From an uncultured Candidatus Saccharibacteria bacterium (GTDB taxonomy: Bacteria; Patescibacteriota; Minisyncoccia; Minisyncoccales; Staskawiczbacteraceae): a stretch of DNA of 64,000 nucleotides. This document shows positions 1,381 to 55,100 of this stretch, one piece after another. The notes beneath the pieces are model-generated. The model was not told the DNA's origin and did not search any database. It saw only the letters and a program-made list of their open reading frames with translations. The stretch covers positions 41,513 to 105,512 of the forward strand of contig CAYRVC010000002.1 in the NCBI GenBank assembly GCA_964427585.1, written 5' to 3'. Positions within the stretch are counted from its first letter, which is position 1. Each line of letters begins with the position of its first letter. A program made the translations under genes and the position numbers.

Positions 1381-1464
1381 GCCGGGGTGATGAAATTGGC
1401 AAACATGCAGCACTCAAAATGCTGTGAGCGAAAGCTCTTGAGGGTTCAACTCCCTCCCTCGGCA
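1381..1464 (+). tRNA. tRNA-Leu (anticodon CAA)
   Basis: Hand-folded cloverleaf: 7-bp acceptor GCCGGGG/CCTCGGC, 3-bp D stem, anticodon stem CAGCA/TGCTG with loop CTCAAAA, long variable arm GAGC/GCTC, T-arm GAGGG-TTCAACT-CCCTC, A73 discriminator; CCA not encoded. Confidence 0.85.
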
Positions 1465-1471
1465 CAGAAAA

Positions 1472-3338: not shown

Positions 3339-4071
3339 TTTTCAAAAAATTGGAAAACTTAACAATATCCCCGGGGTTGCCAAAATCAATCCACGAATCC
3401 TTTATCTTTTTGATTTTAACTTTTTTTTCTTTTGCCAGAAGGGAAACGGCGTCGGTAATTTCATACTCCCCCCTGGGGGATCTTTTGATTTTTGAAATTT
3501 TATCAAAAATGTCAGGGGTGAACTTGTACAAGCCGGCATTAATAAGGTTTCCCACAAATTCTTCAGGCTTTTCTATTATTTCTCTTAAAAATCCGTTGTC
3601 GGTTATCAACACTCCGTATTTTTCCGGATGTTCGTTTAAAAGGCCGGCGGCGTAATTATACCTGTCGTCAATATTCATTGCCTTCAGATCCCTTACCGAA
3701 TAAAGGTTGTCTCCGTAAAGGTATATGAAGTTCGATTTTCCGATTGTTTTTTTTACGCATTTTACCGGGCAGGCGGTTCCGTATTCTTTTTCCTTTGGCC
3801 CTAAAATTTCATACTGGCTGACAAGCTCTATTTTGCATCTCTTGCCTTTCAAGCATTTTTTATAATATCCATCCACAAATTTTTTCATCAACTCTTCTTT
3901 GTATCCCACCACCAAAACAATTTCTTTATAACCGGCTGACAAAAGATTGTCTAAAATATACGCCAAAAAGGGCCGTTCCTTAACGTTTATCAATGACTTC
4001 GGTTTGTTTGCCGTTAAATGAAGCATGCGGGTTCCCTGGCCCGCCGCCGCTACAACCGCTTTAGTTATCAT
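3295..4071 (-). CDS. Sugar-phosphate nucleotidyltransferase (NTP-transferase family)
   Basis: 258 aa; N-terminal AAGQGTRM glycine-rich nucleotide-binding motif; 5' end overlaps tsaC ORF by 44 nt, true start may be internal. Confidence 0.7.
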   Translation of the reverse strand: MITKAVVAAAGQGTRMLHLTANKPKSLINVKERPFLAYILDNLLSAGYKEIVLVVGYKEELMKKFVDGYYKKCLKGKRCKIELVSQYEILGPKEKEYGTACPVKCVKKTIGKSNFIYLYGDNLYSVRDLKAMNIDDRYNYAAGLLNEHPEKYGVLITDNGFLREIIEKPEEFVGNLINAGLYKFTPDIFDKISKIKRSPRGEYEITDAVSLLAKEKKVKIKKIKDSWIDFGNPGDIVKFSNFLKNGGYKTKKSAGKGA

Positions 4072-4643
4072 AGCAAAGCCAATTCAAAAGCTCTTTTGTT
4101 CATCTCCAGGTATTTTGAAGGAATTATATTTTCAATAGCCTTTCTTACAGATTCGGCTTTCAGCTTGATAATGCCTTTTTTGACGCAGAATCCCAAAATA
4201 TACATAGAGCTCACTACTTCATTGTTAAGTTCTTTTTTGCATATATCCGAGGCTCTCACCCAATAAATATTTTTTCCGATCGAATTATTCAAGCTTTCCG
4301 ACACATAATCTTTGGAAATGCTTTTATCAAAAAAGATAAAATTTTCGTTGACCGCAAAAATAGTTTCAGGATTTTTAAAAACAATCGCCCTCAAGGCTTC
4401 GGTCATTTCCAAAGATAAAACCAGGTCCGCTTTTTTAAAGGAAAACAAAGGGCTGGCCACTTTTTTTCCGAATCTGATATAAGCCTCAACCGCTCCGCCT
4501 CTTTGGGAAAGCCCGTGAAGCTCCGATGATTTTAAGTCGTATCCTTCAACCAAGGCAGCTTCGTTTATTATGGAAATAAGGGTGATAATGCCCTGCCCGC
4601 CGACTCCGGTTATAACAATGTTAAAATTTTTATTATTATTCAT
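4068..4643 (-). CDS. iorB: Indolepyruvate/2-oxoacid:ferredoxin oxidoreductase, beta (gamma-like) subunit
   Basis: 191 aa; ITGVGGQGIIT motif typical of IorB/PorG family; 4-nt overlap with upstream iorA. Confidence 0.7.
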   Translation of the reverse strand: MNNNKNFNIVITGVGGQGIITLISIINEAALVEGYDLKSSELHGLSQRGGAVEAYIRFGKKVASPLFSFKKADLVLSLEMTEALRAIVFKNPETIFAVNENFIFFDKSISKDYVSESLNNSIGKNIYWVRASDICKKELNNEVVSSMYILGFCVKKGIIKLKAESVRKAIENIIPSKYLEMNKRAFELALL

Positions 4644-6471: not shown

Positions 6472-8985
6472 TCAAATTTTCAAAACGAAATTTATCAGTT
6501 TTTTAGGGATGAATACAATTTTTATGACTTCCTTTCCCTCCAGCCACTGTTTCACTTTTTCGCTTTCCGCCGTTATTTTTTCCGCCTGTTTTTGTGTTAT
6601 ATTCGCGTCAACTTCCATTTTATCCCTCACCCTGCCGTTAACCTGCACTATCAATAAAATATTTTTTTCTTCAACGAGCCGGTTATCGTGCTTTGGCCAT
6701 TTTTGATTGCAAACAAGCCCTAAAAATCCTTTTTCAACCCACACCTCCTCCGCCAAATGAGGGGCGAAAGGAGACAAAATTGTCAAAAAAATCCTCAAAT
6801 CTTCTTTATCCAAACAACCGCCGGAAACATTCCAGGCGTTCGCAAACTCCATCATGGAACTCACGGCAGTGTTAAATTTCATCGCCTCGATGTCTTCTGA
6901 AACTTTTTTAATAGTTTTGTGTAGCTGTTTTTTAAGCTCTTTTTTTGGTTTGCTTTTTTCAGAATCTGCTTTTTTTGCCAGCTTGTATATTTTTTCAAGA
7001 AATCTTCTTACCCCTATCACCCCTTTTGTGTCCCAGGGAATCATCTGGTCAAAAGGTCCCACGAACATTTCGTAAACCCTTAAAGTATCTGCTCCGTATT
7101 CTTTCACGACCCTATCCGGATTTATCACGTTCCCTTTGGATTTTGACATTTTAATCCCTCCTTCGCCCAGTATCATTCCGTGGGAAGTTCTTTTTAGATA
7201 GGGTTCAGGCTCCATATCTTTGGGAACAGCGCCGATATCCCACAAAAATTTGAATATGAAACGCGAATACAGCAAATGCAAAGTGGTGTGCTCCATTCCT
7301 CCGTTATACCAGTCAACCGGCATCCAATATTCCAGCAGTTTTTTTGCGGCCGGTTCTTTATTGTTTTTAGGGTCTGAATACCTCAAATAATACCAGTTAG
7401 ACCCTGCCCAGTTTGGCATTGTATCTGTTTCTCTCCGACCAACTCCTCCGCATTTAGGGCATTTTACATTGACCCATTGCCTTATTTCGGCCAGTGGAGA
7501 TTCTCCGGTTTTGGTGGGTTTATAATTTTTTACTTTCGGCAACTCCAATGGCAATTTTTTTTCCGGCACGGCAACCCAGCCCGGATTCAGTAATTCGCCT
7601 TTTGTGAATTTTGGATTTTTAGCTTCTGTTTTCCTTTCTATTTTCTTCTTGCAATTTTCGCAAAAAACAAGAGGAATGGGTTCCCCCCAGTAATGCTGGC
7701 GGGAAAATATCCAATCCCTCAGCTTGTAATTTATTTTATTGTCAGCTGAGCCTTTTTCTTTCAGCCAGGATGTGATTTTCAAACGCGCCTCCGTGGAACT
7801 TAATCCGTCAAACTGCATGGAATTATAAAGAATGCCGTCGCCTTCAAAGCATATCTCCATATTTTTCACCCTGGGGGCGATATTTTTATCAATAGGCTCA
7901 ATGGAAGTCCTTAAGGGTATGGCGTATTTTTTGGCAAGCTCAAAATCCCTTTTGTCGTGGGCGTCGCCAAAAACAGCGCCCTTTCCGTAATGCGCCAGAA
8001 CAAAGTCGGTTATGAAAACGGGGATTTCTTCTCCAGTGGCGGGATTCTTTGCTTTTATCCCCTTAAGCTCTACGGCCGTAACCTGTTTTCCCTCGCTAGC
8101 CCTTTCTATGTCGGAAACATCTTTTATTTTATTCCTGTAATCCAAAACTTCTTCCATATTCTGGATTTTATTATTATGCCTGTCTATGAATTTATGCTCG
8201 GGAGCCAGCACCAAAAATGTCCCGGAAAATATGGTGTCTATCCTGGTGGTGAAAACCTCGATAAAATCTTCCATTCTTAAAACTTCAAATCTTACCAATG
8301 CCCCTGCAGACCTCCCTATCCATTCCTTCTGCTGAATTTTTATTTTTTCAAGATAATCAACCGAATCCAAATCTTTGATCAGCCTTTCCGCGTAATCGGT
8401 TATTTTTATCAGCCACTGTTCCTTTTCTTTTTTTTCAACCCTTGTTCCGCATCTTTCGCATTTGCCAGAGACCACTTCTTCGTTCGCCAAACCCGTCTTG
8501 CAGGAAGGGCACCAGTTAATGGGCATTTTTTCCTTGTAAGCCAAACCCTCTCTGAACAGCTGTAAAAATATCCACTGCGTCCATTTGTAATATTTTGGGT
8601 CGGTGGTGTTTACCTCTCGTGACCAGTCAAAAGAATAACCCAGGCTTTTTAACTGTCGCCGGAAATTATCGGTATTCTTTTTGGTGGCGACAGAGGGGTG
8701 GATTCCTTTTTTTATGGCGTAGTTTTCCGTGGGCAGGCCGAAAGCGTCCCAGCCCATGGGAAACAGAACATTAAAACCCTCCATCCTTCTTTTCCTGGCA
8801 ATAATATCCAGGGCCGTGTAGCTCCGGCAATGGCCTACGTGGAGGCCCTCCCCCGAAGGATAAGGAAATTCTGCCAGAAGGTAGAACTTCTTCTTGCCGG
8901 AACGGTTTTTCGCCTTAAAACAGCTGGAGCCATACCACTTTTCCTGCCACTTCTTCTCTATTTCCTGAGGATTATATTTTCGCAT
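6472..8985 (-). CDS. leuS: Leucyl-tRNA synthetase
   Basis: 837 aa class I aaRS; PYPSGEGLHVGHCRSYT (HIGH) and KMSKSKGN motifs, LeuRS-specific zinc/editing regions. Confidence 0.95.
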   Translation of the reverse strand: MRKYNPQEIEKKWQEKWYGSSCFKAKNRSGKKKFYLLAEFPYPSGEGLHVGHCRSYTALDIIARKRRMEGFNVLFPMGWDAFGLPTENYAIKKGIHPSVATKKNTDNFRRQLKSLGYSFDWSREVNTTDPKYYKWTQWIFLQLFREGLAYKEKMPINWCPSCKTGLANEEVVSGKCERCGTRVEKKEKEQWLIKITDYAERLIKDLDSVDYLEKIKIQQKEWIGRSAGALVRFEVLRMEDFIEVFTTRIDTIFSGTFLVLAPEHKFIDRHNNKIQNMEEVLDYRNKIKDVSDIERASEGKQVTAVELKGIKAKNPATGEEIPVFITDFVLAHYGKGAVFGDAHDKRDFELAKKYAIPLRTSIEPIDKNIAPRVKNMEICFEGDGILYNSMQFDGLSSTEARLKITSWLKEKGSADNKINYKLRDWIFSRQHYWGEPIPLVFCENCKKKIERKTEAKNPKFTKGELLNPGWVAVPEKKLPLELPKVKNYKPTKTGESPLAEIRQWVNVKCPKCGGVGRRETDTMPNWAGSNWYYLRYSDPKNNKEPAAKKLLEYWMPVDWYNGGMEHTTLHLLYSRFIFKFLWDIGAVPKDMEPEPYLKRTSHGMILGEGGIKMSKSKGNVINPDRVVKEYGADTLRVYEMFVGPFDQMIPWDTKGVIGVRRFLEKIYKLAKKADSEKSKPKKELKKQLHKTIKKVSEDIEAMKFNTAVSSMMEFANAWNVSGGCLDKEDLRIFLTILSPFAPHLAEEVWVEKGFLGLVCNQKWPKHDNRLVEEKNILLIVQVNGRVRDKMEVDANITQKQAEKITAESEKVKQWLEGKEVIKIVFIPKKLINFVLKI

Positions 8986-9101
8986 AATTATTTATGATAT
9001 CAAATAACTTTAACTGGGTAAATCTTGACAGTAAAAAATTATTATGCTATATAAATAAATTGATGCCGCTCATTTACAAACTGCAAATAGGAGGTCTTTT
9101 T

Positions 9102-9377
9102 ATGAACAAAGTATGGTATACGATATGTTACAATACCAATACTCGTAGCTTTAATGTGAATATAGACACTGGTCTGCAATTAGTTCATTCAGATACGAAG
9201 CAAGAGGCGGAAAATTTAATGTCTTTGGTAACTTCACAATGGGAAAGTTTTTATATTTTTTCCCGCCTATATAGTCCTTTTGACAGCGTAGAAGACGCTC
9301 GCAAAGATTACTACAAAGAAATCGATCGTACCGCCAGCGCTTTCTGCCGCCCAGATGCTCATTTATGGAAGAGATAG
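9102..9377 (+). CDS. Small hypothetical protein (91 aa) with atypical codon usage
   Basis: AGGAGG Shine-Dalgarno 7 nt upstream of ATG at 9102; followed by strong terminator; no recognisable domain. Confidence 0.4.
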   Translation: MNKVWYTICYNTNTRSFNVNIDTGLQLVHSDTKQEAENLMSLVTSQWESFYIFSRLYSPFDSVEDARKDYYKEIDRTASAFCRPDAHLWKR

Positions 9378-9406
9378 AAAAACCGCCACACACCGTAAAA
9401 ACCAAA

Positions 9407-9447
9407 ACCGCCTGACGAAAATTCGTCCAAAGCGGTCTTTTTTTTAT
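9407..9447 (+). terminator. Rho-independent terminator
   Basis: Nested hairpin ACCGC..GACGAA-AA-TTCGTC..GCGGT followed by CTTTTTTTTAT. Confidence 0.7.
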
Positions 9448-9450
9448 AAA

Positions 9451-9502
9451 ATTTTAGTGTGGTCAAAATTCTACGATCGTGATAATTTGACCACACTAAA
9501 AT
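9451..9502. repeat. Near-perfect 17-bp inverted repeat (ATTTTAGTGTGGTCAAA / TTTGACCACACTAAAAT) with 18-nt spacer containing CGATCG
   Basis: Read directly from sequence; operator- or cruciform-like palindrome. Confidence 0.7.
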
Positions 9503-9534
9503 ACAAATGCCATTAACGTTATCATTACTATTAC

Positions 9535-9592
9535 CATACATACGCTATAAAAACATACATACACTATAAAAACATACATACGCTATAAAAAA
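9535..9592. repeat. Three tandem copies of a 19-bp unit CATACATAC(G/A)CTATAAAAA
   Basis: Contiguous direct repeats without spacers (iteron-like; not CRISPR). Confidence 0.75.
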
Positions 9593-9633
9593 TGCGGTCG
9601 CAGTTTTATCGCGTGTCGTATACTATATGTTAT

Positions 9634-9687
9634 TATGTCTTAGAACTATGTCTTAAATTATTATGTCTTAAATATTTATATCTTAAA
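9634..9687. repeat. Four tandem-ish copies of TATGTCTTA(G/A)A motif
   Basis: TATGTCTTAGAAC, TATGTCTTAAAT, TATGTCTTAAAT, TATATCTTAAAT direct repeats. Confidence 0.6.
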
Positions 9688-10527
9688 TAATTGTTGGGCG
9701 TTCTGGGTTGTGATTTTAGCGATTTTTTCAAAACTGATTCCTTTTAGATTGGAGATTTTTTGAATTATGTATTTTATGAATACGGGCTCGTTGCGAACAT
9801 ATCCTTTAGGCCCCGCCTTTGCTGAAACTTCGGCGGGCAAGGGAGTTAAATACGGACAGTCGGTTTCAACTAAAATCCTGTCTGGCGGGCATTGCTTTAT
9901 GGCTTCATCCATATTGAGTTTAAAAATTATTCCGTTTAAGCCGATATAAAATCCCAATTTTAAATATTCTTCCATTTCAGCCTCTGTTCCTGTAAAACAA
10001 TGTATTACTCCTCGCAATTTTTCTGTTTTAGATTTTAAGATATCCAAGATATCCGCATGCGCCATCCGGCAGTGAACAATAACGGGCAAATTCAATTCTT
10101 CTGCCAACTCAAGCTGTTCGATGAAAACTTTTTTTTGCGAATCCTTGAACTGATGTAATTTTGCATTGGTTTTAGGCCGGTAATAATAATCCAAACCTAT
10201 TTCTCCTATTGCAACTGCTTTTTTGGATTTTGCCAACTCTTTGTATTTTTCTTTGTCAAAACCTTGTTCTTTTGTTAAAAATTCTCCTTCACTTTGGTCG
10301 GTTTTTATTTTTACAAATTCAGTGCCGGCATAAATAGGGTGAAGCCCGATAGCGGCATAAACCCCTTCTTTGTATTTTTCCGCAATCTTAACCGCCTCTT
10401 CGCTTGTTTCATATCTTGTGCCGACATTTATAAGCCAAATATTTTGGCCCAATGTTCTTTTTATAACCTCATCTGAATCTTTTTTAAAAGCTTCAAAATT
10501 AAGATGGCTGTGAGTATCTATAATCAT
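9676..10527 (-). CDS. tatD: TatD-family metal-dependent hydrolase/DNase
   Basis: 283 aa; MIIDTHSHLNF N-terminal metal-binding motif and TIM-barrel hydrolase pattern of TatD. Confidence 0.85.
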   Translation of the reverse strand: MIIDTHSHLNFEAFKKDSDEVIKRTLGQNIWLINVGTRYETSEEAVKIAEKYKEGVYAAIGLHPIYAGTEFVKIKTDQSEGEFLTKEQGFDKEKYKELAKSKKAVAIGEIGLDYYYRPKTNAKLHQFKDSQKKVFIEQLELAEELNLPVIVHCRMAHADILDILKSKTEKLRGVIHCFTGTEAEMEEYLKLGFYIGLNGIIFKLNMDEAIKQCPPDRILVETDCPYLTPLPAEVSAKAGPKGYVRNEPVFIKYIIQKISNLKGISFEKIAKITTQNAQQLFKI

Positions 10528-27791: not shown

Positions 27792-28140
27792 GGGAGCGTA
27801 AGTTTCGACAGATATTTCCTTAAAAATATGCAAACTCAGTTTTCTAGAACCTGATAAAACTTCTAGAAAAAACATAATTGCCAATTCATTCAATAGGCAA
27901 CCGGTATTGGCATACGCTTAATGCCGCATCTTTGCTGTTGACTCCTGATAAACAGACAAAGGTGTTATACAATCAGGATGGGCAATTCAATTTCCCGGGG
28001 GATTGCTAAGACTTTAACGGGAATCAGGATATTAAAAATTTCGCCTGTTTCTTATTTAATATCCAAACAACAAAGCAGGATAAGTTTGTAGATTTATTTT
28101 TAAAAAATTTCTGGACCCGGGTTCGCCCCCGGCGCTTCCA
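27792..28140 (+). ncRNA. ssrA: tmRNA (ssrA), standard one-piece; proposed tag ANSFNRQPVLAYA
   Basis: 5' GGGAGCG pairs with 3' CGCTTCC (acceptor), T-arm CCGGG-TTCGCCC-CCGG, discriminator A; internal ORF GCC(27880)..GCT TAA(27921) encodes ANSFNRQPVLAYA; located directly after smpB. Confidence 0.75.
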
Positions 28141-28159
28141 CAAAATATATTTTAAAACT

Positions 28160-41768: not shown

Positions 41769-41843
41769 TGGTGCCCCCAGTTGGATTCGAACCAACATTT
41801 TAGACTCCGGAGGCCTAAGTTCTATCCATTGAACTATGGGGAC
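41769..41843 (-). tRNA. tRNA-Arg (anticodon CCG), CCA encoded
   Basis: Hand-folded: acceptor GTCCCCA/TGGGGGC, D stem GTTC/GAAC, anticodon stem TAGGC/GTCTA loop CTCCGGA, T-arm GTTGG-TTCGAAT-CCAAC, 3' ACCA; followed by bidirectional hairpin terminator 41741-41768. Confidence 0.85.
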
Positions 41844-51646: not shown

Positions 51647-53692
51647 TTATATTTCAGAAACCAGCAATTCCAATGCTGCTTCCGGTTCCAGTCTTCCTGA
51701 TTTAATATCCAAATCTGCCTGAAATATTTTCTGGTAGATTTTTTTTAATTCAGAAAAAGAAAACCGGCTGCACAAATAATATGTTTTTTTAACGACAAAC
51801 GGGTGAAGCCCGCTTTTTTTTGCTATGGCAGGATAAGGATTTTTCTTTTCAGCCAGCTCCTTGATTATCAAAAGAGTCCTGAACTGGTAAGCAATCATCG
51901 AAAGCAGCCTTAAAACGTTTTCTCCGCTTTCCAGGTGTTTATGCAAAAGAGAGATTGCCTCTTTTTTGTTTTTTGAAGCCAAGGCATCTATGGTTTTGAA
52001 TATGTCGTTTTCTATTTTCGGCTTTAAAAATAAATCCACATCGTCTTTCGTTATTTTTTTTCCGTTTTTAAAACAGGCTAATTTTTTTATTTCGTTGCTG
52101 ACATGCCACAAGTCTGAGCTGACGCGGCAAAAAAATCTTTCCAGGGCGGATTCGTCTATTTCAGCTTTAAAAATTTCGAACTCTTTTTTCAGCCAGTTTT
52201 TAAGCAAAACCCCTTTTAACAAATTGAATTCTTGGCATTTGGCGTTCTTATTTAGAAACTTGAAAAGCGGGTCCTTTTTTTCTATTTTGGAAGGCTCGTA
52301 CAGCAAAATAATAACATCTTCAGATTCCGAAAAGTCCTTCGCTTCTTTTAAAAACTTATCTCTTAAAATGTCATCCGAGAAAATATTCAAAACCACCAGC
52401 AGTTTTTTTTCACCAGAAAACAGGGAAATCTGGCTGGCTTTGTTTTTAAAATCTAAAAAAACTTGCTCCGACCCTCTGCCATCGTCTAAAAAATTGAAAA
52501 GACCAAAAGACATCCCGCTTTTATGGATTTTTTTGTAATGGTCAATTATTTCATTTAATTTCTGCCTTGACCTATATGTGTCCTCCCCGTATAAAAATAT
52601 AATCATGCTCAAATATTTAAAAAAGTAATTTTTTCTGACCTTATAGCCGTTGCAATGTTTTAAAACTCCTAAATAAGATTGAATCGTTTGATTAAAATTT
52701 TCCTTTGTTATTTTTCCATCCTTCAATTCCACTTCCCTTATTTTTAAATTTTTGATTATTCTGTTTTTGGTTTTTATCCTTAAAATTCTATAATGAGGAA
52801 ATACGACATATCCTAAAAAATCAATACCTTGATGATATTTCCTTATTATTATCTTATCTTTATGCAAAGATAATTTCAAATTATTTTTCAGAAAATTGCT
52901 TATATCTCTAATTGTCTGTCTGTAGTTTCTGCTCAAAATAGTGAAGTCGTCGCAGTAACGAATATAGTATTTTTCTTTTAGTTCATGCTTAATAAATTTA
53001 TCCAATTCGCCAAGATAAATATTTGCGAATAATTGACTTGTTATGTTTCCCAAGGGCAACCCTTTTGGAAAACTCTTTATAATCCTGATTATCAACCAAA
53101 TTACATCATCGTATTTTATTTTATTTTTGATTAAACTAATCAAAGTATCCTGGTCAATTGAATCAAAATATTTTCTAATATCGCATTTTAAAATATAACA
53201 GGTTTTTGTGTTATTTTTACTGATCTTTCCAGCAAAACAATTTAATCTGTTCACTGCCCTGTGCGTTCCTTTATCGATCCTGCAGGAATAAGAATCAAAA
53301 ATAAATGATTTATCAAAAATAGGATATAAAATTCTAAATATGGCATGATGCAAAACTCTGTCTTTCACCGTTGCCTTATGAATTTTTCTCAATTTTGGGT
53401 CTTTAATGAAAAAAGAGGTATAATTTGAATGTCGGTAGGTTTTATTTTTTAATTCGTTATAAAGAAGAAAAATATTGTCTTCTAAATTATATTCAAATTC
53501 CTGGACATCTGGCTTTTTCCTTTTTCCCTTTTTAAATTCGTTCCAGGCAAAGAATAAATTTTCAAGGGATATTATTCTTTCAAAAATATCATGGCTTTTA
53601 ATACCCCCCCCCCCAGACCTTTGGCAATTTTGATGTTCCTGTTTTGCATAAGATTTGCGAATTCTATAAAAAAATTTATCTGTTGTTGCCAA
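51647..53692 (-). CDS. DGR-type reverse transcriptase fused in-frame to DNA polymerase III delta subunit (HolA)
   Basis: aa ~35-360: RT motifs incl. SYSCRIDKGTHRAV, YILKCDIRKYFDSI, DGR-hallmark PLGNITSQLFANIYL (SQ instead of SP), YCDD, GIDFLGY, SYLGVLKHCNGY; aa 363-681: MIIFLYGEDTY..GEKKLLVVLN..GENVLRLLSMIAYQFR..LDIKSGRLEPEAALELLV matches HolA end-to-end; no stop codon between (verified on nucleotides 52600-52660). Confidence 0.8.
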   Translation of the reverse strand: MATTDKFFYRIRKSYAKQEHQNCQRSGGGGIKSHDIFERIISLENLFFAWNEFKKGKRKKPDVQEFEYNLEDNIFLLYNELKNKTYRHSNYTSFFIKDPKLRKIHKATVKDRVLHHAIFRILYPIFDKSFIFDSYSCRIDKGTHRAVNRLNCFAGKISKNNTKTCYILKCDIRKYFDSIDQDTLISLIKNKIKYDDVIWLIIRIIKSFPKGLPLGNITSQLFANIYLGELDKFIKHELKEKYYIRYCDDFTILSRNYRQTIRDISNFLKNNLKLSLHKDKIIIRKYHQGIDFLGYVVFPHYRILRIKTKNRIIKNLKIREVELKDGKITKENFNQTIQSYLGVLKHCNGYKVRKNYFFKYLSMIIFLYGEDTYRSRQKLNEIIDHYKKIHKSGMSFGLFNFLDDGRGSEQVFLDFKNKASQISLFSGEKKLLVVLNIFSDDILRDKFLKEAKDFSESEDVIILLYEPSKIEKKDPLFKFLNKNAKCQEFNLLKGVLLKNWLKKEFEIFKAEIDESALERFFCRVSSDLWHVSNEIKKLACFKNGKKITKDDVDLFLKPKIENDIFKTIDALASKNKKEAISLLHKHLESGENVLRLLSMIAYQFRTLLIIKELAEKKNPYPAIAKKSGLHPFVVKKTYYLCSRFSFSELKKIYQKIFQADLDIKSGRLEPEAALELLVSEI

Positions 53693-53964
53693 AAATTCCT
53701 AAGAAAGACAGGTTTGGAATTTTTGCGAGGATAGAAACTTTTTGTTTAGATATATTAATTTTGACAATTGAATCTGCTCTGCAAACAAAAAATAACAAAC
53801 TTCAACTATTAAATTTAACAAGAATAAAAATTGAGACCTTGAAAAAATTGATAAGAATCGCTAACGAATTAAAAATTATTGAGGATAAAAAATACATAGA
53901 GTTGGAATTTGATTTGCAGGAAATATCTAAAATGATTAATGGCTGGATAAAATACTTAATATAA
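53644..53964 (+). CDS. avd: Avd-like accessory variability determinant (four-helix-bundle / 23S rRNA-IVS protein family)
   Basis: 106 aa; LPKIPKKDRFGIFARIE..ILTIESA and ..ISKMINGWIKYL match IVS41/Avd pattern (FPK.EKyGL.sQl.R...Si..NIAEG ... GWIk); divergent from and overlapping RT 5' end by 49 nt. Confidence 0.65.
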   Translation: MHKICEFYKKIYLLLPKIPKKDRFGIFARIETFCLDILILTIESALQTKNNKLQLLNLTRIKIETLKKLIRIANELKIIEDKKYIELEFDLQEISKMINGWIKYLI

Positions 53965-53994
53965 AAGGAGCTTTTAAAAAGCTCCTTTTATTGC

Positions 53995-54115
53995 GGAAAC
54001 TTCGGAGCGGGACCGCAAATAGTCGTTGTGATTGTTGGCGTAGTTCCAATTCACCTTGAACTTGCCGTCATTCCAGTTCGCGTTCGGCACGTAGCCATCG
54101 GAATTGCGGGAACCG
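53995..54115 (-). repeat. DGR template repeat (TR), sense on minus strand, AAC-rich
   Basis: 121-nt repeat 88% identical to VR; minus-strand reading GSRNSDGYVPNANWNDGKFKVNWNYANNHNDYLRSRSEVS with 8 AAC/AAT Asn codons. Confidence 0.7.
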
Positions 54116-54298
54116 TTATTTATTTAATTCCATCTATTTCACCGAAAGTTTTTTTTAAAAAACAATCTGTGTTATCTGGCGGTCGCCAGCAGTACTTCGA
54201 ACCAAATGTTCGTTAGAATTAAACAAGCAGTTTCCTAAAAAAGGCAAACCGACATCGAATTAAAAATTCGACCGGCTGTATTAGCCAAAGTTATTATA

Positions 54299-54344
54299 CA
54301 TAAAAAAAGAGCTCTTTTGCAACATCTTGTCGCAAAAGAGCTTT
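54299..54344 (-). terminator. Rho-independent terminator of DGR target gene
   Basis: Minus-strand hairpin AAGCTCTTTTGC-loop-GCAAAAGAGCTC followed by TTTTTTT. Confidence 0.6.
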
Positions 54345-54352
54345 ACTGACGA

Positions 54353-54371
54353 GTCCCGCCGCGGGCGGGAC
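54353..54371 (-). promoter_or_regulatory. GC-rich hairpin 34 nt downstream of VR (GTCCCGCC-GCG-GGCGGGAC)
   Basis: 8-bp all-GC stem in AT-rich context; position equivalent to the hairpin/cruciform described downstream of VR in characterised DGRs. Confidence 0.45.
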
Positions 54372-54401
54372 AGGAAAAAAGGAAAAAGGTACAAGGTTAA
54401 G

Positions 54402-55100
54402 TTAGGAAACTACGGAGCGGGACCGCAAATCGTCGTAGTGATTGCTGGCGTAGTTCCAAGAAACCCTGAACCTGCCGTCATCCCAGAACGCGCTCGGCAC
54501 GTCGCCATCGGAATTGCGGGAACCGGCGCAAAGCGTCCAATTTTTCATATCAAGATGTTCACCTGTTTCCTTGAAAAACTTGAGCTCGTAAAGCTCGCGC
54601 TCTTCAAGGGTAATTTCTGGTGTTTCTCTCTGCCTTAGAAAATCAGCAGAACGATTTTTGTTTTCCTCATCTGCCTCCACGCGGTCTCGCGCCCAAATGG
54701 CATAGTGGCCGTTTTCGCCAGTGCGGTCGGATTTAATAACTTCGTCCAAGCTCTTATCCGTATATTTCCAAGACGGAAAGAGCTCTTTGCACTTGTCAAA
54801 CAAACGCTGGGGAGTCATCCCCTGGGCAACCACCAGTAGGCGGTCAAAGCCGGGTTTGCTGTCGGGAATTTTAATTCCCGAAAAATCCAATTCAAGACCA
54901 AAGACCTCCTTGTAGAATTTGATCCAGTCAGCCAGTAATTTCTTACTGCTGGTCGGCTTTGCTTCGACTAGCTTCTTGCCATCGATAATCGCCTGCAAAA
55001 CATCGCTTACTTCTTTAGGGTCGCGTTTTCCATCAACTAAAAACTTGCCAACGCTCGCCCACTGTTTAAACAATGTTTCATACACATTTCCACTACTCAT
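54402..55100 (-). CDS. DGR variable (target) protein with C-terminal VR
   Basis: 232 aa; last 40 aa encoded by VR (..GSRNSDGDVPSAFWDDGRFRVSWNYASNHYDDLRSRSVVS); C-terminal W/R/S-rich signature reminiscent of CLec/FGE-type DGR targets. Confidence 0.65.
   Translation of the reverse strand: MSSGNVYETLFKQWASVGKFLVDGKRDPKEVSDVLQAIIDGKKLVEAKPTSSKKLLADWIKFYKEVFGLELDFSGIKIPDSKPGFDRLLVVAQGMTPQRLFDKCKELFPSWKYTDKSLDEVIKSDRTGENGHYAIWARDRVEADEENKNRSADFLRQRETPEITLEERELYELKFFKETGEHLDMKNWTLCAGSRNSDGDVPSAFWDDGRFRVSWNYASNHYDDLRSRSVVS
54405..54525 (-). repeat. DGR variable repeat (VR) at 3' end of target gene
   Basis: 14 mismatches to TR; 11 at positions where TR sense strand has A. Confidence 0.7.

Follow-up and report, generated by a model that had tools for sequence, protein, structure and literature searches.

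Two palindromes and two sets of tandem repeats lie between a small gene for a 91-aa protein and tatD in the chromosome of a Candidatus Staskawiczbacteria (CPR) organism. They are probably orphaned hairpin or operator sites, reshaped by slippage and left behind in a variable spacer between housekeeping genes after the loss of a paaX-like gene. We analysed a stretch of 64,000 nucleotides, referred to below as the window, in which about 250 bp separate the terminator of the 91-aa gene from the tatD stop codon. The paaX-like gene occupies this interval in relatives and would have gone here, leaving remnants of three kinds. One would be a degraded palindrome (palindrome B) whose distal arm was amplified to three copies, the supposed 19-bp iterons. 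Another would be palindrome A, which has unrelated arms and lies at the terminator-side position, and the third would be tatD's final 12 nt, present in four copies through slippage. The arrays are not iterons of an origin; they would be local slipped-strand or hairpin-promoted duplications of pre-existing sequence. In its present state the region most likely forms only a structured 3' end of the tatD mRNA, with transcription continuing to a bidirectional terminator, and plays no part in replication. Iterons, a palindrome and an odd gene, the textbook-looking picture drawn in a preliminary description of this DNA, would in this CPR genome come down to intergenic sequence in decay, and neither a replicon nor an integrated element would be involved.

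Table 1. Features of the spacer and its flanks, in window coordinates
Feature	Position	Strand	Details
leuS promoter (predicted)	8994-9022	-	TTTACC, N17, TATCAT with TG extension (promoter scan)
91-aa gene promoter (predicted)	9025-9053	+	TTGACA 9025-9030, N17, extended -10 TGC-TATATA 9045-9053
91-aa gene	9102-9377	+	SD AGGAGG 9089-9094, 7 nt upstream of ATG
Intrinsic terminator, bidirectional (predicted)	9407-9445	both	hairpin 9407-9436; T8 (+) at 9438-9445; TTTTGGTTTTT on - strand
Palindrome A	9451-9502		26-nt arms at 85%, outer 17 bp perfect; CGATCG 9474-9479
Three tandem 19-bp units	9535-9591		CATACATACGCTATAAAAA; one mismatch; TRF score 107
Palindrome B, degraded	9573-9624		ATACGC-TATAAAAAAT-GCGGTCGC-AGTTTTAT-CGCGTGTCGTAT; core 9594-9601
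Four tandem ~15-bp units	9630-9692	-	tatD strand reads TTTAAGAYATAR
tatD (TatD-family hydrolase)	9676-10527	-	Pfam PF01026, E 2e-77; last gene of convergent unit

A variable spacer between housekeeping genes

The flanks of the region are housekeeping genes, and the segment itself is a variable spacer between two conserved units, metG-csrA-tatD on the minus strand and leuS. Across relatives the order runs ubiA … M16 peptidase, AI-2E, metG, csrA and tatD, then, beyond the spacer, leuS and POR. The tatD product has an identical counterpart (100%) among the annotated proteins of a Candidatus Staskawiczbacteria MAG, and it is the 3' untranslated tail of this gene that carries the repeats. Two independent assemblies from other samples (L001 and L002) match the window at 100% throughout this region, which excludes faulty assembly as the source of the arrays. 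A TatD-based scan of genome contigs returned no match; in the closest relative found, TatD identity is about 73%, a distance that counts against our explanation. The contents of the tatD-leuS gap differ in almost every relative, and the gap is a hot spot in Staskawiczbacteria, where small ORFs without relation to one another replace each other while the promoter on one side and the bidirectional terminator on the other stay conserved.

The promoter predicted for the 91-aa gene is a strong one of sigma-70 type. Its elements TCTTGAC and TATGCTAT are conserved in the window and in the L009, L004 and L036 loci; a consensus scan missed it because its -10 ends in A. The -35 elements of this promoter and of the predicted leuS promoter stand back-to-back, and the block GTAAA-TCTTGAC is invariant in the four genomes. 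Since the leuS -10 ends 8 nt before the ATG (8985), the leuS mRNA would be close to leaderless.

The preliminary description had credited the 91-aa ORF with a strong SD, a strong terminator and codon usage distinct from its neighbours, and all three stand. Its codon usage falls at the 0.5th percentile among 91-codon windows drawn from the long ORFs of the window, and five of its six arginine codons are CGT or CGC (15% in those long ORFs); its GC content is ordinary (0.388 vs 0.394). The suggestion that the gene is foreign is refuted. L009 carries an orthologue in the same slot (70% identical by HMMER, 67% by tblastn), dN/dS is 0.18 and differences by codon position number 23/13/33, which marks it as a genuine, lineage-restricted gene whose homologues are under purifying selection. 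An exhaustive HMMER search of 1.84 billion representatives yielded convincing homologues only in P0122 (70% identity, E 4e-36) and P0123 (40%, E 2e-7), giving a family of three known sequence clusters. P0124 and P0125 are weaker matches to long repetitive proteins and look spurious, and a word-indexed protein search returned the identical sequence only. Pfam, PHROGs and PADLOC gave no match to the ORF or its homologues. AF2 modelled the single sequence poorly (pLDDT 51); with three sequences the pLDDT rose to 71.5 and the predicted fold was beta-beta-alpha-beta-alpha, for which Foldseek searches of the PDB and BFVD found nothing below E 0.09.

Downstream of the gene, 9407-9445 fits the definition of a Rho-independent terminator, a GC hairpin followed by a U-tract, on both strands, and would end transcription of the 91-aa gene as well as of the metG-csrA-tatD unit that converges on it. 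Predicted folding energies are -12.6 kcal/mol on the plus strand (z -3.4) and -19.6 kcal/mol on the minus strand (z -4.2); a simple scan missed the element because of an internal loop in its stem. With U-tracts on both strands and convergent flanking units it is like other bidirectional terminators between convergent genes, but it is unusually conserved, 46 nt being 96% identical to L004 although proteins are ~70% identical. The ORF that L004 carries there is unrelated, and the terminator is also conserved in L009. Terminator-pattern scans recovered only the L009 organism and unrelated GC-rich matches.

These surroundings bear on the proposal that a plasmid, phage or satellite has its replication origin here, as a remnant or still active. 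The preliminary description had raised both a plasmid or phage origin remnant and an integrated satellite, and the resemblance to iteron origins is real as far as layout goes: three head-to-tail 19-bp direct repeats with an inverted partial copy lie in AT-rich DNA beside a palindrome and near a small gene of atypical codon usage. The housekeeping synteny on both sides is nonetheless chromosomal and conserved, the 91-aa ORF has its constrained orthologue in the same slot, and no rep, integrase or phage gene adjoins the region, the neighbours being leuS, tatD, csrA and metG. The database search that the description had called for, run as a distant blastn of 8990-9700 against 72,556 plasmids and 50,697 phages, found no match. 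GC skew is negative in 16 of the window's 16 four-kb bins, with no inflection. These particular repeats are absent in relatives that share the orthologous housekeeping context, the outcome that the description itself had named as a refutation. The units themselves are copies of a palindrome arm of a kind found in relatives beside a regulator-like gene, and the second array is the end of tatD. These results contradict the readings as an origin remnant and as an integrated satellite, and we consider an origin of this sort scarcely credible. A chromosomal oriC was rejected as well, there being no sign change in GC skew and most genes on both sides lying on the minus strand.

Palindromes around the paaX-like gene of relatives

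In L004, L009, L029, L032 and L036 tatD is followed by a paaX-like gene, placed between tatD and the terminator. The next gene is leuS in L004, L009 and L036; L029 ends inside the paaX-like gene, an IS follows it in L032, and in L003 the gene lies beyond leuS. The encoded protein combines a transmembrane helix, a winged helix (wHTH) and a Cas2-like domain, and it matches the PaaX central domain PF20803 (E 1e-19). It looks like a core gene and not a cassette, because it comprises at least 374 clusters, the 120 best listed being 58-70% identical, the query's own cluster apart. A scan of viral contigs found no relatives of it. Searching the 64-kb window (of a 197-kb contig) by tblastn with two paaX-like proteins gave nothing at E <= 1e-3. 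We infer that the gene was lost from this lineage and not that it was never present. It might sit elsewhere in the genome, as in L003, with the sites still serving in trans, a point against our explanation.

Near-perfect palindromes of ~38 bp bracket the paaX-like gene, with the form ATACGCC-N7/8-GCGRYCGC-N7/8-GGCGTAT. Wherever a GCGNNCGC-centred palindrome in the loci fetched (~313 kb) has 12 or more of its 16 arm positions paired, it flanks a paaX-like gene. Watson-Crick pairs occupy 15-20 of 24 positions, with several pair types per position, and where sites A and B of L032 differ (four of eight inner-arm positions), each of the four changes is matched by a compensating one. In six genomes the palindrome on the tatD side overlaps the -35 element from which the paaX-like gene would be transcribed. 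T-rich tails follow only about half of these palindromes, which are therefore not uniformly terminators. The ATACGCC…GGCGTAT palindrome was not found in viral contigs, and the gaps that lack a paaX-like gene (L003 and L031) hold no single leftover site. Integron attC, dif/Xer and lox-type recombination sites were set aside as the identity of the palindromes, because the gene is a conserved core gene, the palindromes are perfect and without strand asymmetry, and L003 and L031 have no leftover site.

Palindrome B appears to be the window's counterpart of these sites, as judged from short matches and from shared layout and position. The best BLAST piece shared with the relatives' sites is 12 nt, exact (E 0.046). 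The window site has ATACGC…(AT-rich)…GCGGTCGCAG…CGTAT in common with the L036 and L004 sites, and its ATACGC…GCGGTCGCAG arrangement matches sites of L036, L032 and L004. It lies just downstream of the tatD stop, like site B in L036, L032, L004, L009 and L029. Its core lies 75 nt from the stop, and the extra 15-bp units make up 45 nt of this distance, which in L036 is ~38 nt. Without a bulge, 12 of its 24 positions form Watson-Crick pairs, fewer than in any relative's site.

Both tandem arrays were found as first described, and TRF ranks them above all others in the 64-kb window, the 19-bp array scoring 107 and the TATGTCTTAAA array 80 (28-bp period row). Each 19-bp unit repeats the distal arm of palindrome B, and the third runs directly into the GCGGTCGC core. 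The window has no further copy of the unit within three mismatches (0.01 expected by chance). Relatives also have duplicated distal arms at one site, with two tandem copies in L009 and two copies in L036. The four TATGTCTTARA units (at 9634, 9647, 9662 and 9677; TRF scores 73-80), or TATGTCTTAAA units, are tandem copies of the last three tatD codons (F-K-I) plus the stop. One of them, the last TATGTCTTAAA-type unit in plus-strand order, is the real tatD end (stop 9676-9678). The units stand head-to-tail with no spacers, and the earlier statement that this is not a CRISPR is correct. The palindrome on GCGGTCGC, the match of the last TATGTCTTAAA unit to the tatD end, the bidirectional terminator and the ORF promoter are additions to the features first listed.

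We suggest that the arrays arose by slippage, and duplications can be seen at the locus in relatives. L033-35 carry a 90-nt tandem duplication of the 3' end of the paaX-like gene, its stop and the palindrome that is absent in L032, and L032 has about five tandem ATGAGTAAATT units at the start of its paaX-like gene. The idea of a CsrA sponge fails on the GGA motif, which is absent from the repeat units on either strand. A direct repeat of 17/20 positions (9111-9130 vs 9613-9632) is compatible with chance, with ~0.2 expected by a rough estimate. A relic of the paaX-like promoter at 9515-9534 (TGGTAATAGTAAT vs TGTGATATAATAAT in L032) is too weak to claim.

The preliminary description had also considered a regulator-binding array, and this reading survives, though weakened: palindrome B and the 19-bp units match the sites of the paaX-like gene, but the gene is missing and the site is degraded. 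For the array to be live, some winged-helix protein, PaaX-like or not, whose gene lies at another place in the genome would have to bind the 19-bp units and the inverted arm around GCGGTCGC, perhaps with palindrome A. Its binding would govern read-through, or convergent transcription, in the interval from tatD to the 91-aa gene. The overlap of the tatD-side palindrome with the -35 in the six genomes is the classic operator position, L003 illustrates that the gene can lie at another place, and the isolated extra arm copies seen in L009, in L036 and in the window, unable as they are to pair into a hairpin, are easier to understand as places where a protein binds. The absence of a paaX-like gene from the 64-kb window and the standing of its palindrome as the most degraded of the family weigh against this, and promoter scanning and reading of the sequence left no convincing promoter beside that palindrome. 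Moreover, the inner arms of two sites in one genome differ yet stay complementary, which argues for base pairing over base-specific reading, and the recognition-helix region is nearly identical in genomes with completely different arms. We hold a live array to be rather unlikely, and prefer to regard the sites as orphaned, having acted as hairpins, as sites for a PaaX-like protein or as both.

Palindrome A and the transcribed spacer

The near-perfect 17-bp inverted repeat around CGATCG was likewise recognized from the start. As RNA it is predicted to fold at -23.5/-22.7 kcal/mol (z -7.8/-6.9). It stands where the paaX-like gene of relatives has its palindrome on the terminator side, but its arms are different; no arm similarity to any paaX-flanking site was found, which is a point against our explanation.

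Forty-six nucleotides of palindrome A are 89% identical to L003 12412-12457, a stretch inside the tsaD coding sequence that coincides with a 15-aa insertion relative to the Thermotoga TsaD of solved structure. The housekeeping proteins of L003 are only ~70% identical to those of the window. This tsaD copy is not accounted for by the loss of a paaX-like gene.

Such a match would be in keeping with palindrome A, perhaps with the whole family, being a miniature, non-autonomous mobile element that inserts between genes and in-frame into them, with the arrays as debris of insertion or excision. The variable contents of the tatD-leuS gap fit that idea, and a ~50-bp palindrome found once intergenically and once in-frame recalls Rickettsia palindromic elements and REP-like repeats. 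Unlike those elements, it is known in two copies only, one per genome, and gives no sign of mobility or multi-copy spread: the copy here is single in 64 kb, and none occurs in the other fetched loci. No target-site duplication was seen, and the tsaD loop is naturally variable in length. Arm matches in viral contigs proved to be five unrelated contigs with different centres and GC content. A mobile origin is, in our judgement, quite improbable.

The stability of the palindrome A hairpin on either strand could also point to an RNA that has escaped annotation in the interval from the terminator to tatD, either a small RNA or a cis-regulatory one. If transcription does end at the bidirectional terminator, the region is copied into RNA at least within the 3' tail of tatD. 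Against this, Rfam searches of the window at gathering and permissive thresholds (E up to 10) returned only a tmRNA, two tRNAs and generic hairpin noise, and there is no convincing promoter within the gap. Shuffled sequence folds as well as 9530-9635 does (z -0.2 to -0.9), and the gap sequence is not conserved in relatives. An RNA of this kind is very improbable.

Likeness to described systems

TIGR arrays of TIGR-Tas systems have been described in CPR bacteria and are built of 36-nt units in which edge and loop repeats (or box C/D motifs) separate two variable spacers (PMC12045711). A genome of Patescibacteria with palindromes and short units in tandem invites the comparison, and we rejected the assignment. 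The periods here are 19 and 15 nt, the units are near-identical, and there is neither a 36-nt period nor variable spacers. No TGATGA (box C-type) motif occurs in 9443-9700, the sole CTGA being in the terminator. No Nop-domain Tas protein adjoins the region; the neighbours are TatD and LeuRS, and the 91-aa ORF is without a Pfam match.

With its palindrome over the -35 of a wHTH gene and a second copy beyond the gene, the arrangement in relatives is like that of autoregulated winged-helix repressors of the PaaX/GntR and ArsR types, and in L006 an ArsR-type gene in this gap is arranged likewise. Compared with typical operators, however, the relatives' sites are unusually long at ~38 bp, and their conserved GC centre and variable, compensated arms are the opposite of the usual half-site pattern. 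The paaX-like protein differs from such repressors in its N-terminal membrane helix, and the regulator gene is absent from the window. In the literature searched, no paper combined PaaX with a Cas2-like domain or with Parcubacteria.

More speculatively, and with only a small chance of being right, the ~38-bp palindromes may be hairpin cis-elements of an undescribed class, with a GCGRYCGC apex, compensated stems and extra distal arms. The conserved, membrane-anchored paaX-like protein, whose gene they bracket across Staskawiczbacteria, might then bind folded RNA or single-stranded DNA and not duplex DNA, the window would represent the state after gene loss, and the CGATCG palindrome would be a small element able to land in-frame in tsaD. 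The paaX-like gene, with its wHTH and Cas2-like parts, is in any case widespread and well conserved, and long palindromes on either side of it, held symmetrical through compensated changes, are a regular feature.

A small gene in a slot of changing content

All the elements that the preliminary description had picked out between tatD and leuS are present: a small ORF with its Shine-Dalgarno sequence and terminator, a 17-bp inverted repeat around CGATCG, three tandem 19-bp units and four TATGTCTTARA units. The explanation that we favour, with somewhat better than even confidence, is that a paaX-like gene was lost and its palindromic sites were left orphaned and degrading, together with slippage arrays, beside a small gene that is genuine and specific to the lineage. 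TatD matches at 100% identity a protein annotated in a MAG of Candidatus Staskawiczbacteria (Parcubacteria, CPR; 197-kb contig), and the local gene order, AI-2E transporter, metG, csrA, tatD, gap, leuS and POR-type oxidoreductase, is found again in related metagenomic contigs (L numbers below).

Features of the tatD-leuS gap and of the wider window
Feature	Position	Strand	Details
tRNA-Leu(CAA)	1381-1465		
Predicted promoter of the 91-aa gene	TTGACA 9025-9030; TATATA 9048-9053	+	17-nt spacer, TG-extended -10; from sequence
91-aa ORF	9102-9377	+	AGGAGG 7 nt 5' of ATG
Terminator	hairpin 9407-9436; T8 9438-9445	both	-12.6 kcal/mol (+), z = -3.4
Palindrome A	9451-9502		52 bp; outer 17 bp perfect, CGATCG centre; -23.5 kcal/mol, z = -7.8
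19-bp array	9535-9591		three units; TRF score 107
TATGTCTTARA units	9634, 9647, 9662, 9677		four units; TRF 73-80
tmRNA	27792-28143		tag ANSFNRQPVLAYA
tRNA-Arg(CCG)	41769-41843		
RT + HolA ORF (mechanical call)	51647-53692	-	RVT_1 E 5e-18; DNA polymerase III delta C-terminal domain E 2e-30
bAvd-like gene	53644-53964	+	
Template/variable repeat pair	~53995-54115 vs 54405-54525		121 nt, 88% identical

The codon usage of the 91-aa ORF is indeed atypical, falling at the 0.5th percentile when set against 91-codon windows of the long ORFs in the 64 kb, with CGT or CGC at five of six arginines and an ordinary GC content. Beyond this bias nothing bears out the suggestion that the gene is foreign, and its orthologue in L009 has, by reading, a similar arginine-codon bias. 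A word-indexed protein search matched an identical protein alone, and an exhaustive HMMER search of 1.84 billion representatives found homologues P0122 (95 aa, 70% identity, E 4e-36) and P0123 (92 aa, 40% identity, E 2e-7); two weaker matches, both long repetitive proteins, look spurious. The gene for P0122 occupies the equivalent slot in L009 (Patescibacteria), where it points away from leuS and towards the tatD unit. Between these orthologues, differences at codon positions 1, 2 and 3 number 23, 13 and 33, and dN/dS is 0.18. On these comparisons the 91-aa gene is real, native and lineage-specific. Its product has no match in Pfam, PHROG or PADLOC. An AF2 model built from three sequences (pLDDT 71.5) has a beta-beta-alpha-beta-alpha fold, for which Foldseek returned no neighbour at E < 0.09 in PDB or BFVD.

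The promoter of the small gene lies back-to-back with the predicted leuS promoter (TTTACC/TATCAT), and the blocks GTAAA-TCTTGAC and TATGCTAT are invariant across four genomes. In 8985-9022 the predicted leuS promoter stops 8 nt 5' of the start codon and a Shine-Dalgarno sequence is lacking, so that leuS appears to be leaderless or close to it; a near-leaderless arrangement also characterizes the L004, L032 and L036 paaX-like genes. At the other end of the slot, the terminator hairpin is more stable on the minus strand (-19.6 kcal/mol), where it is followed by TTTTGGTTTTT, and it thus closes both the 91-aa gene and the convergent metG-csrA-tatD unit. In L004, 46 nt of the terminator are 96% identical (E 1e-17), and the ORF between promoter and terminator encodes an unrelated 107-aa protein (L004 1660-2240); in L036 the slot (4230-4560) holds yet another ORF, for a membrane protein of ~85-95 aa. 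Because the interval filled by the 91/95-aa family here (9025-9445) contains unrelated ORFs across genomes and its promoter and terminator are conserved, we regard it as a slot with turnover of content.

A paaX-like gene and its palindromes in related contigs

In L004, L009, L029, L032 and L036, tatD is followed by a same-strand gene of 190-193 aa, which we call paaX-like. Next comes leuS in L004, L009 and L036, the loci that reach far enough; L029 ends within the gene and L032 has an IS after it. A hydrophobic helix at the N terminus of the product is accompanied by a winged-helix region and by the Cas2-like central domain of PaaX (PF20803, E 1e-19; matches to Cas2 itself are weak). The protein family numbers 374 clusters or more, and the best 120 listed, without the query's own, show 58-70% identity, a conservation similar to that of TatD, so that the gene looks like part of the lineage core. 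A tblastn search across the 64-kb window found no copy. Full-text searches found no paper pairing PaaX with Cas2-like or with Parcubacteria, and thus nothing on this family or its flanking palindromes.

The gap varies further among relatives, being empty in L003 and L031 and holding an ArsR-type gene with tRNA-like sequence, or other small ORFs, in L006, L007 and L030. The tRNA-like candidate of L006 (~1150-1260), recognized by eye, has a long variable arm, and the ArsR-type (HTH_5) gene at 1290-1700 has near-identical palindromes, ATAGTACAATT..AATTGTACTAT, on either side. Downstream of tatD in L030 (~2120-2340), a 20-nt perfect inverted repeat, AGACCCGTTGCGTATTAAGA … TCTTAATACGCAACGGGTCT, surrounds ~120 nt in a layout resembling a miniature inverted-repeat element or structured RNA. 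An IS-type transposase gene (rve, HTH_23) directly past the paaX-like gene takes the position of leuS in L032 (4178-5017) and L033 (4268-5164), indicating further rearrangement.

Two long, near-perfect palindromes (~38 bp) flank the paaX-like gene in each genome with both sides visible. The sites of L004, L032 and L036 read ATACGCC-N7/8-GCGRYCGC-N7/8-GGCGTAT, those of L009 and L029 have other arms and the centres GCGATCGC and GCGATAGC, respectively, and L003 has a related pair of ~30 nt. Throughout ~313 kb of retrieved loci, all GCGNNCGC-centred palindromes with at least 12 of 16 arm positions paired adjoin a paaX-like gene. Only about one site in two has a T-rich tail after it, and the palindromes are therefore not uniformly terminators.

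These palindromes may be operators or hairpin elements. By reading, in six of six genomes the palindrome nearer tatD overlaps the -35 element of the promoter (TG-extended -10) before the paaX-like gene, the usual position of an operator. Against an operator role, the arms vary from genome to genome and also within one genome, from one site to the other, with complementarity kept (15-20 of 24 Watson-Crick positions, with several pair types at many), yet the recognition-helix region of the protein is almost invariant between genomes whose arms are unrelated. Moreover, four of eight inner-arm positions differ between the two L032 sites, each compensated on the opposite arm, which argues that hairpin or cruciform pairing, or a symmetry-regenerating mechanism, outweighs base-specific reading there. 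Among known systems the nearest are the palindromic operators through which winged-helix repressors regulate their own genes, hairpin repeats of intergenic DNA, and terminators that act in both directions. The paaX-like gene and the compensated palindromes of relatives are the part deserving follow-up.

Degraded sites and repeat arrays in the window

A second palindrome, B, absent from the preliminary description, is centred on GCGGTCGC (9594-9601) and reads ATACGC-TATAAAAAAT-GCGGTCGC-AGTTTTAT-CGCGTGTCGTAT. It lies just 3' of the tatD stop, as in L036, L004 and L032. In common with them it has the outer ATACGC…CGTAT, inner arms rich in A and T, and the core with the AG after it; since only 12 of its 24 positions pair, it would be the family's most degraded member. 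The distal arm of B consists of the 19-bp unit CATACATACGCTATAAAAA, whose third copy abuts the core, so the supposed iterons are a triplicated palindrome arm. The 64-kb window has no further copy with up to three mismatches (0.01 expected by chance). At the terminator-side sites of two relatives the distal arm is likewise duplicated, as two tandem copies in L009 and as two at a 25-nt period in L036, suggesting that B may be a hybrid left by deletion of the gene between two such sites; a simple internal deletion is the alternative. Under the lost-gene reading, a paaX-like gene once between tatD and the terminator would have disappeared, leaving its palindromic sites.

That reading explains palindrome A only in part. 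A occupies the position of the relatives' terminator-side site, and its arms have no relationship to those of the ATACGCC family. The sole relative of A, with one copy per genome compared, is a 46-nt, 89% identical sequence in-frame in the tsaD CDS of L003 (12412-12457), coinciding with 15 residues inserted in comparison with Thermotoga TsaD. Palindrome A could, from this match, be a small palindromic element able to insert in-frame in genes, or else a fragment copied out of tsaD. Viral contigs sharing its arms only are unrelated.

The 15-bp array, on the tatD strand TTTAAGATATAA / TTTAAGACATAA / TTTAAGACATAG / TAAGACATAA, encodes F-K-I-stop repeats, the true end of tatD being the first copy. 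It and the 19-bp array are the two top TRF arrays of the window (80 and 107); short contigs L001 and L002, from other sequencing runs, show the identical sequence from one end of the region to the other, and neither is therefore an assembly artefact. L033-35 are nearly identical to L032 except for 90 nt duplicated in tandem (~4040-4220), which contain the final 30 nt and stop of the paaX-like gene and the palindrome downstream, and L032 carries about five tandem ATGAGTAAATT units at the start of that gene (3460-3510). Tandem duplications are common at tatD/paaX-like loci, and both window arrays would accordingly have arisen as slipped or hairpin-promoted local duplications. The arrays lie within the 3' untranslated tail of tatD, which should be transcribed as far as the bidirectional terminator.

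The initial proposals of a plasmid or phage replication-origin remnant and of an integrated satellite are refuted. Distant blastn found no match for 8990-9700 among 72,556 plasmids or 50,697 phages, GC skew is negative in every bin over the locus and the 64 kb, and the testable defining features of iteron origins, a Rep gene, a mobile context and a skew change, are all lacking here. Most genes either side of the locus are on the minus strand. A regulator binding array remains conceivable only as a relic or with a regulator acting in trans. The locus differs from CRISPR arrays and from TIGR arrays (PMC12045711) in period, spacers and associated protein. Rfam returned nothing beyond generic hairpin noise at the locus, the tmRNA and two tRNAs being the window's only family matches.

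A diversity-generating retroelement elsewhere in the window

A diversity-generating retroelement lies at 51647-55100. No stop codon separates the reverse transcriptase and HolA parts of its first ORF; such an in-frame fusion would be unusual if true, and could be a sequencing or assembly error. The second repeat forms the 3' end of an ORF (54402-55100), and 11 of the 14 mismatches between the repeats fall at A of the coding strand.
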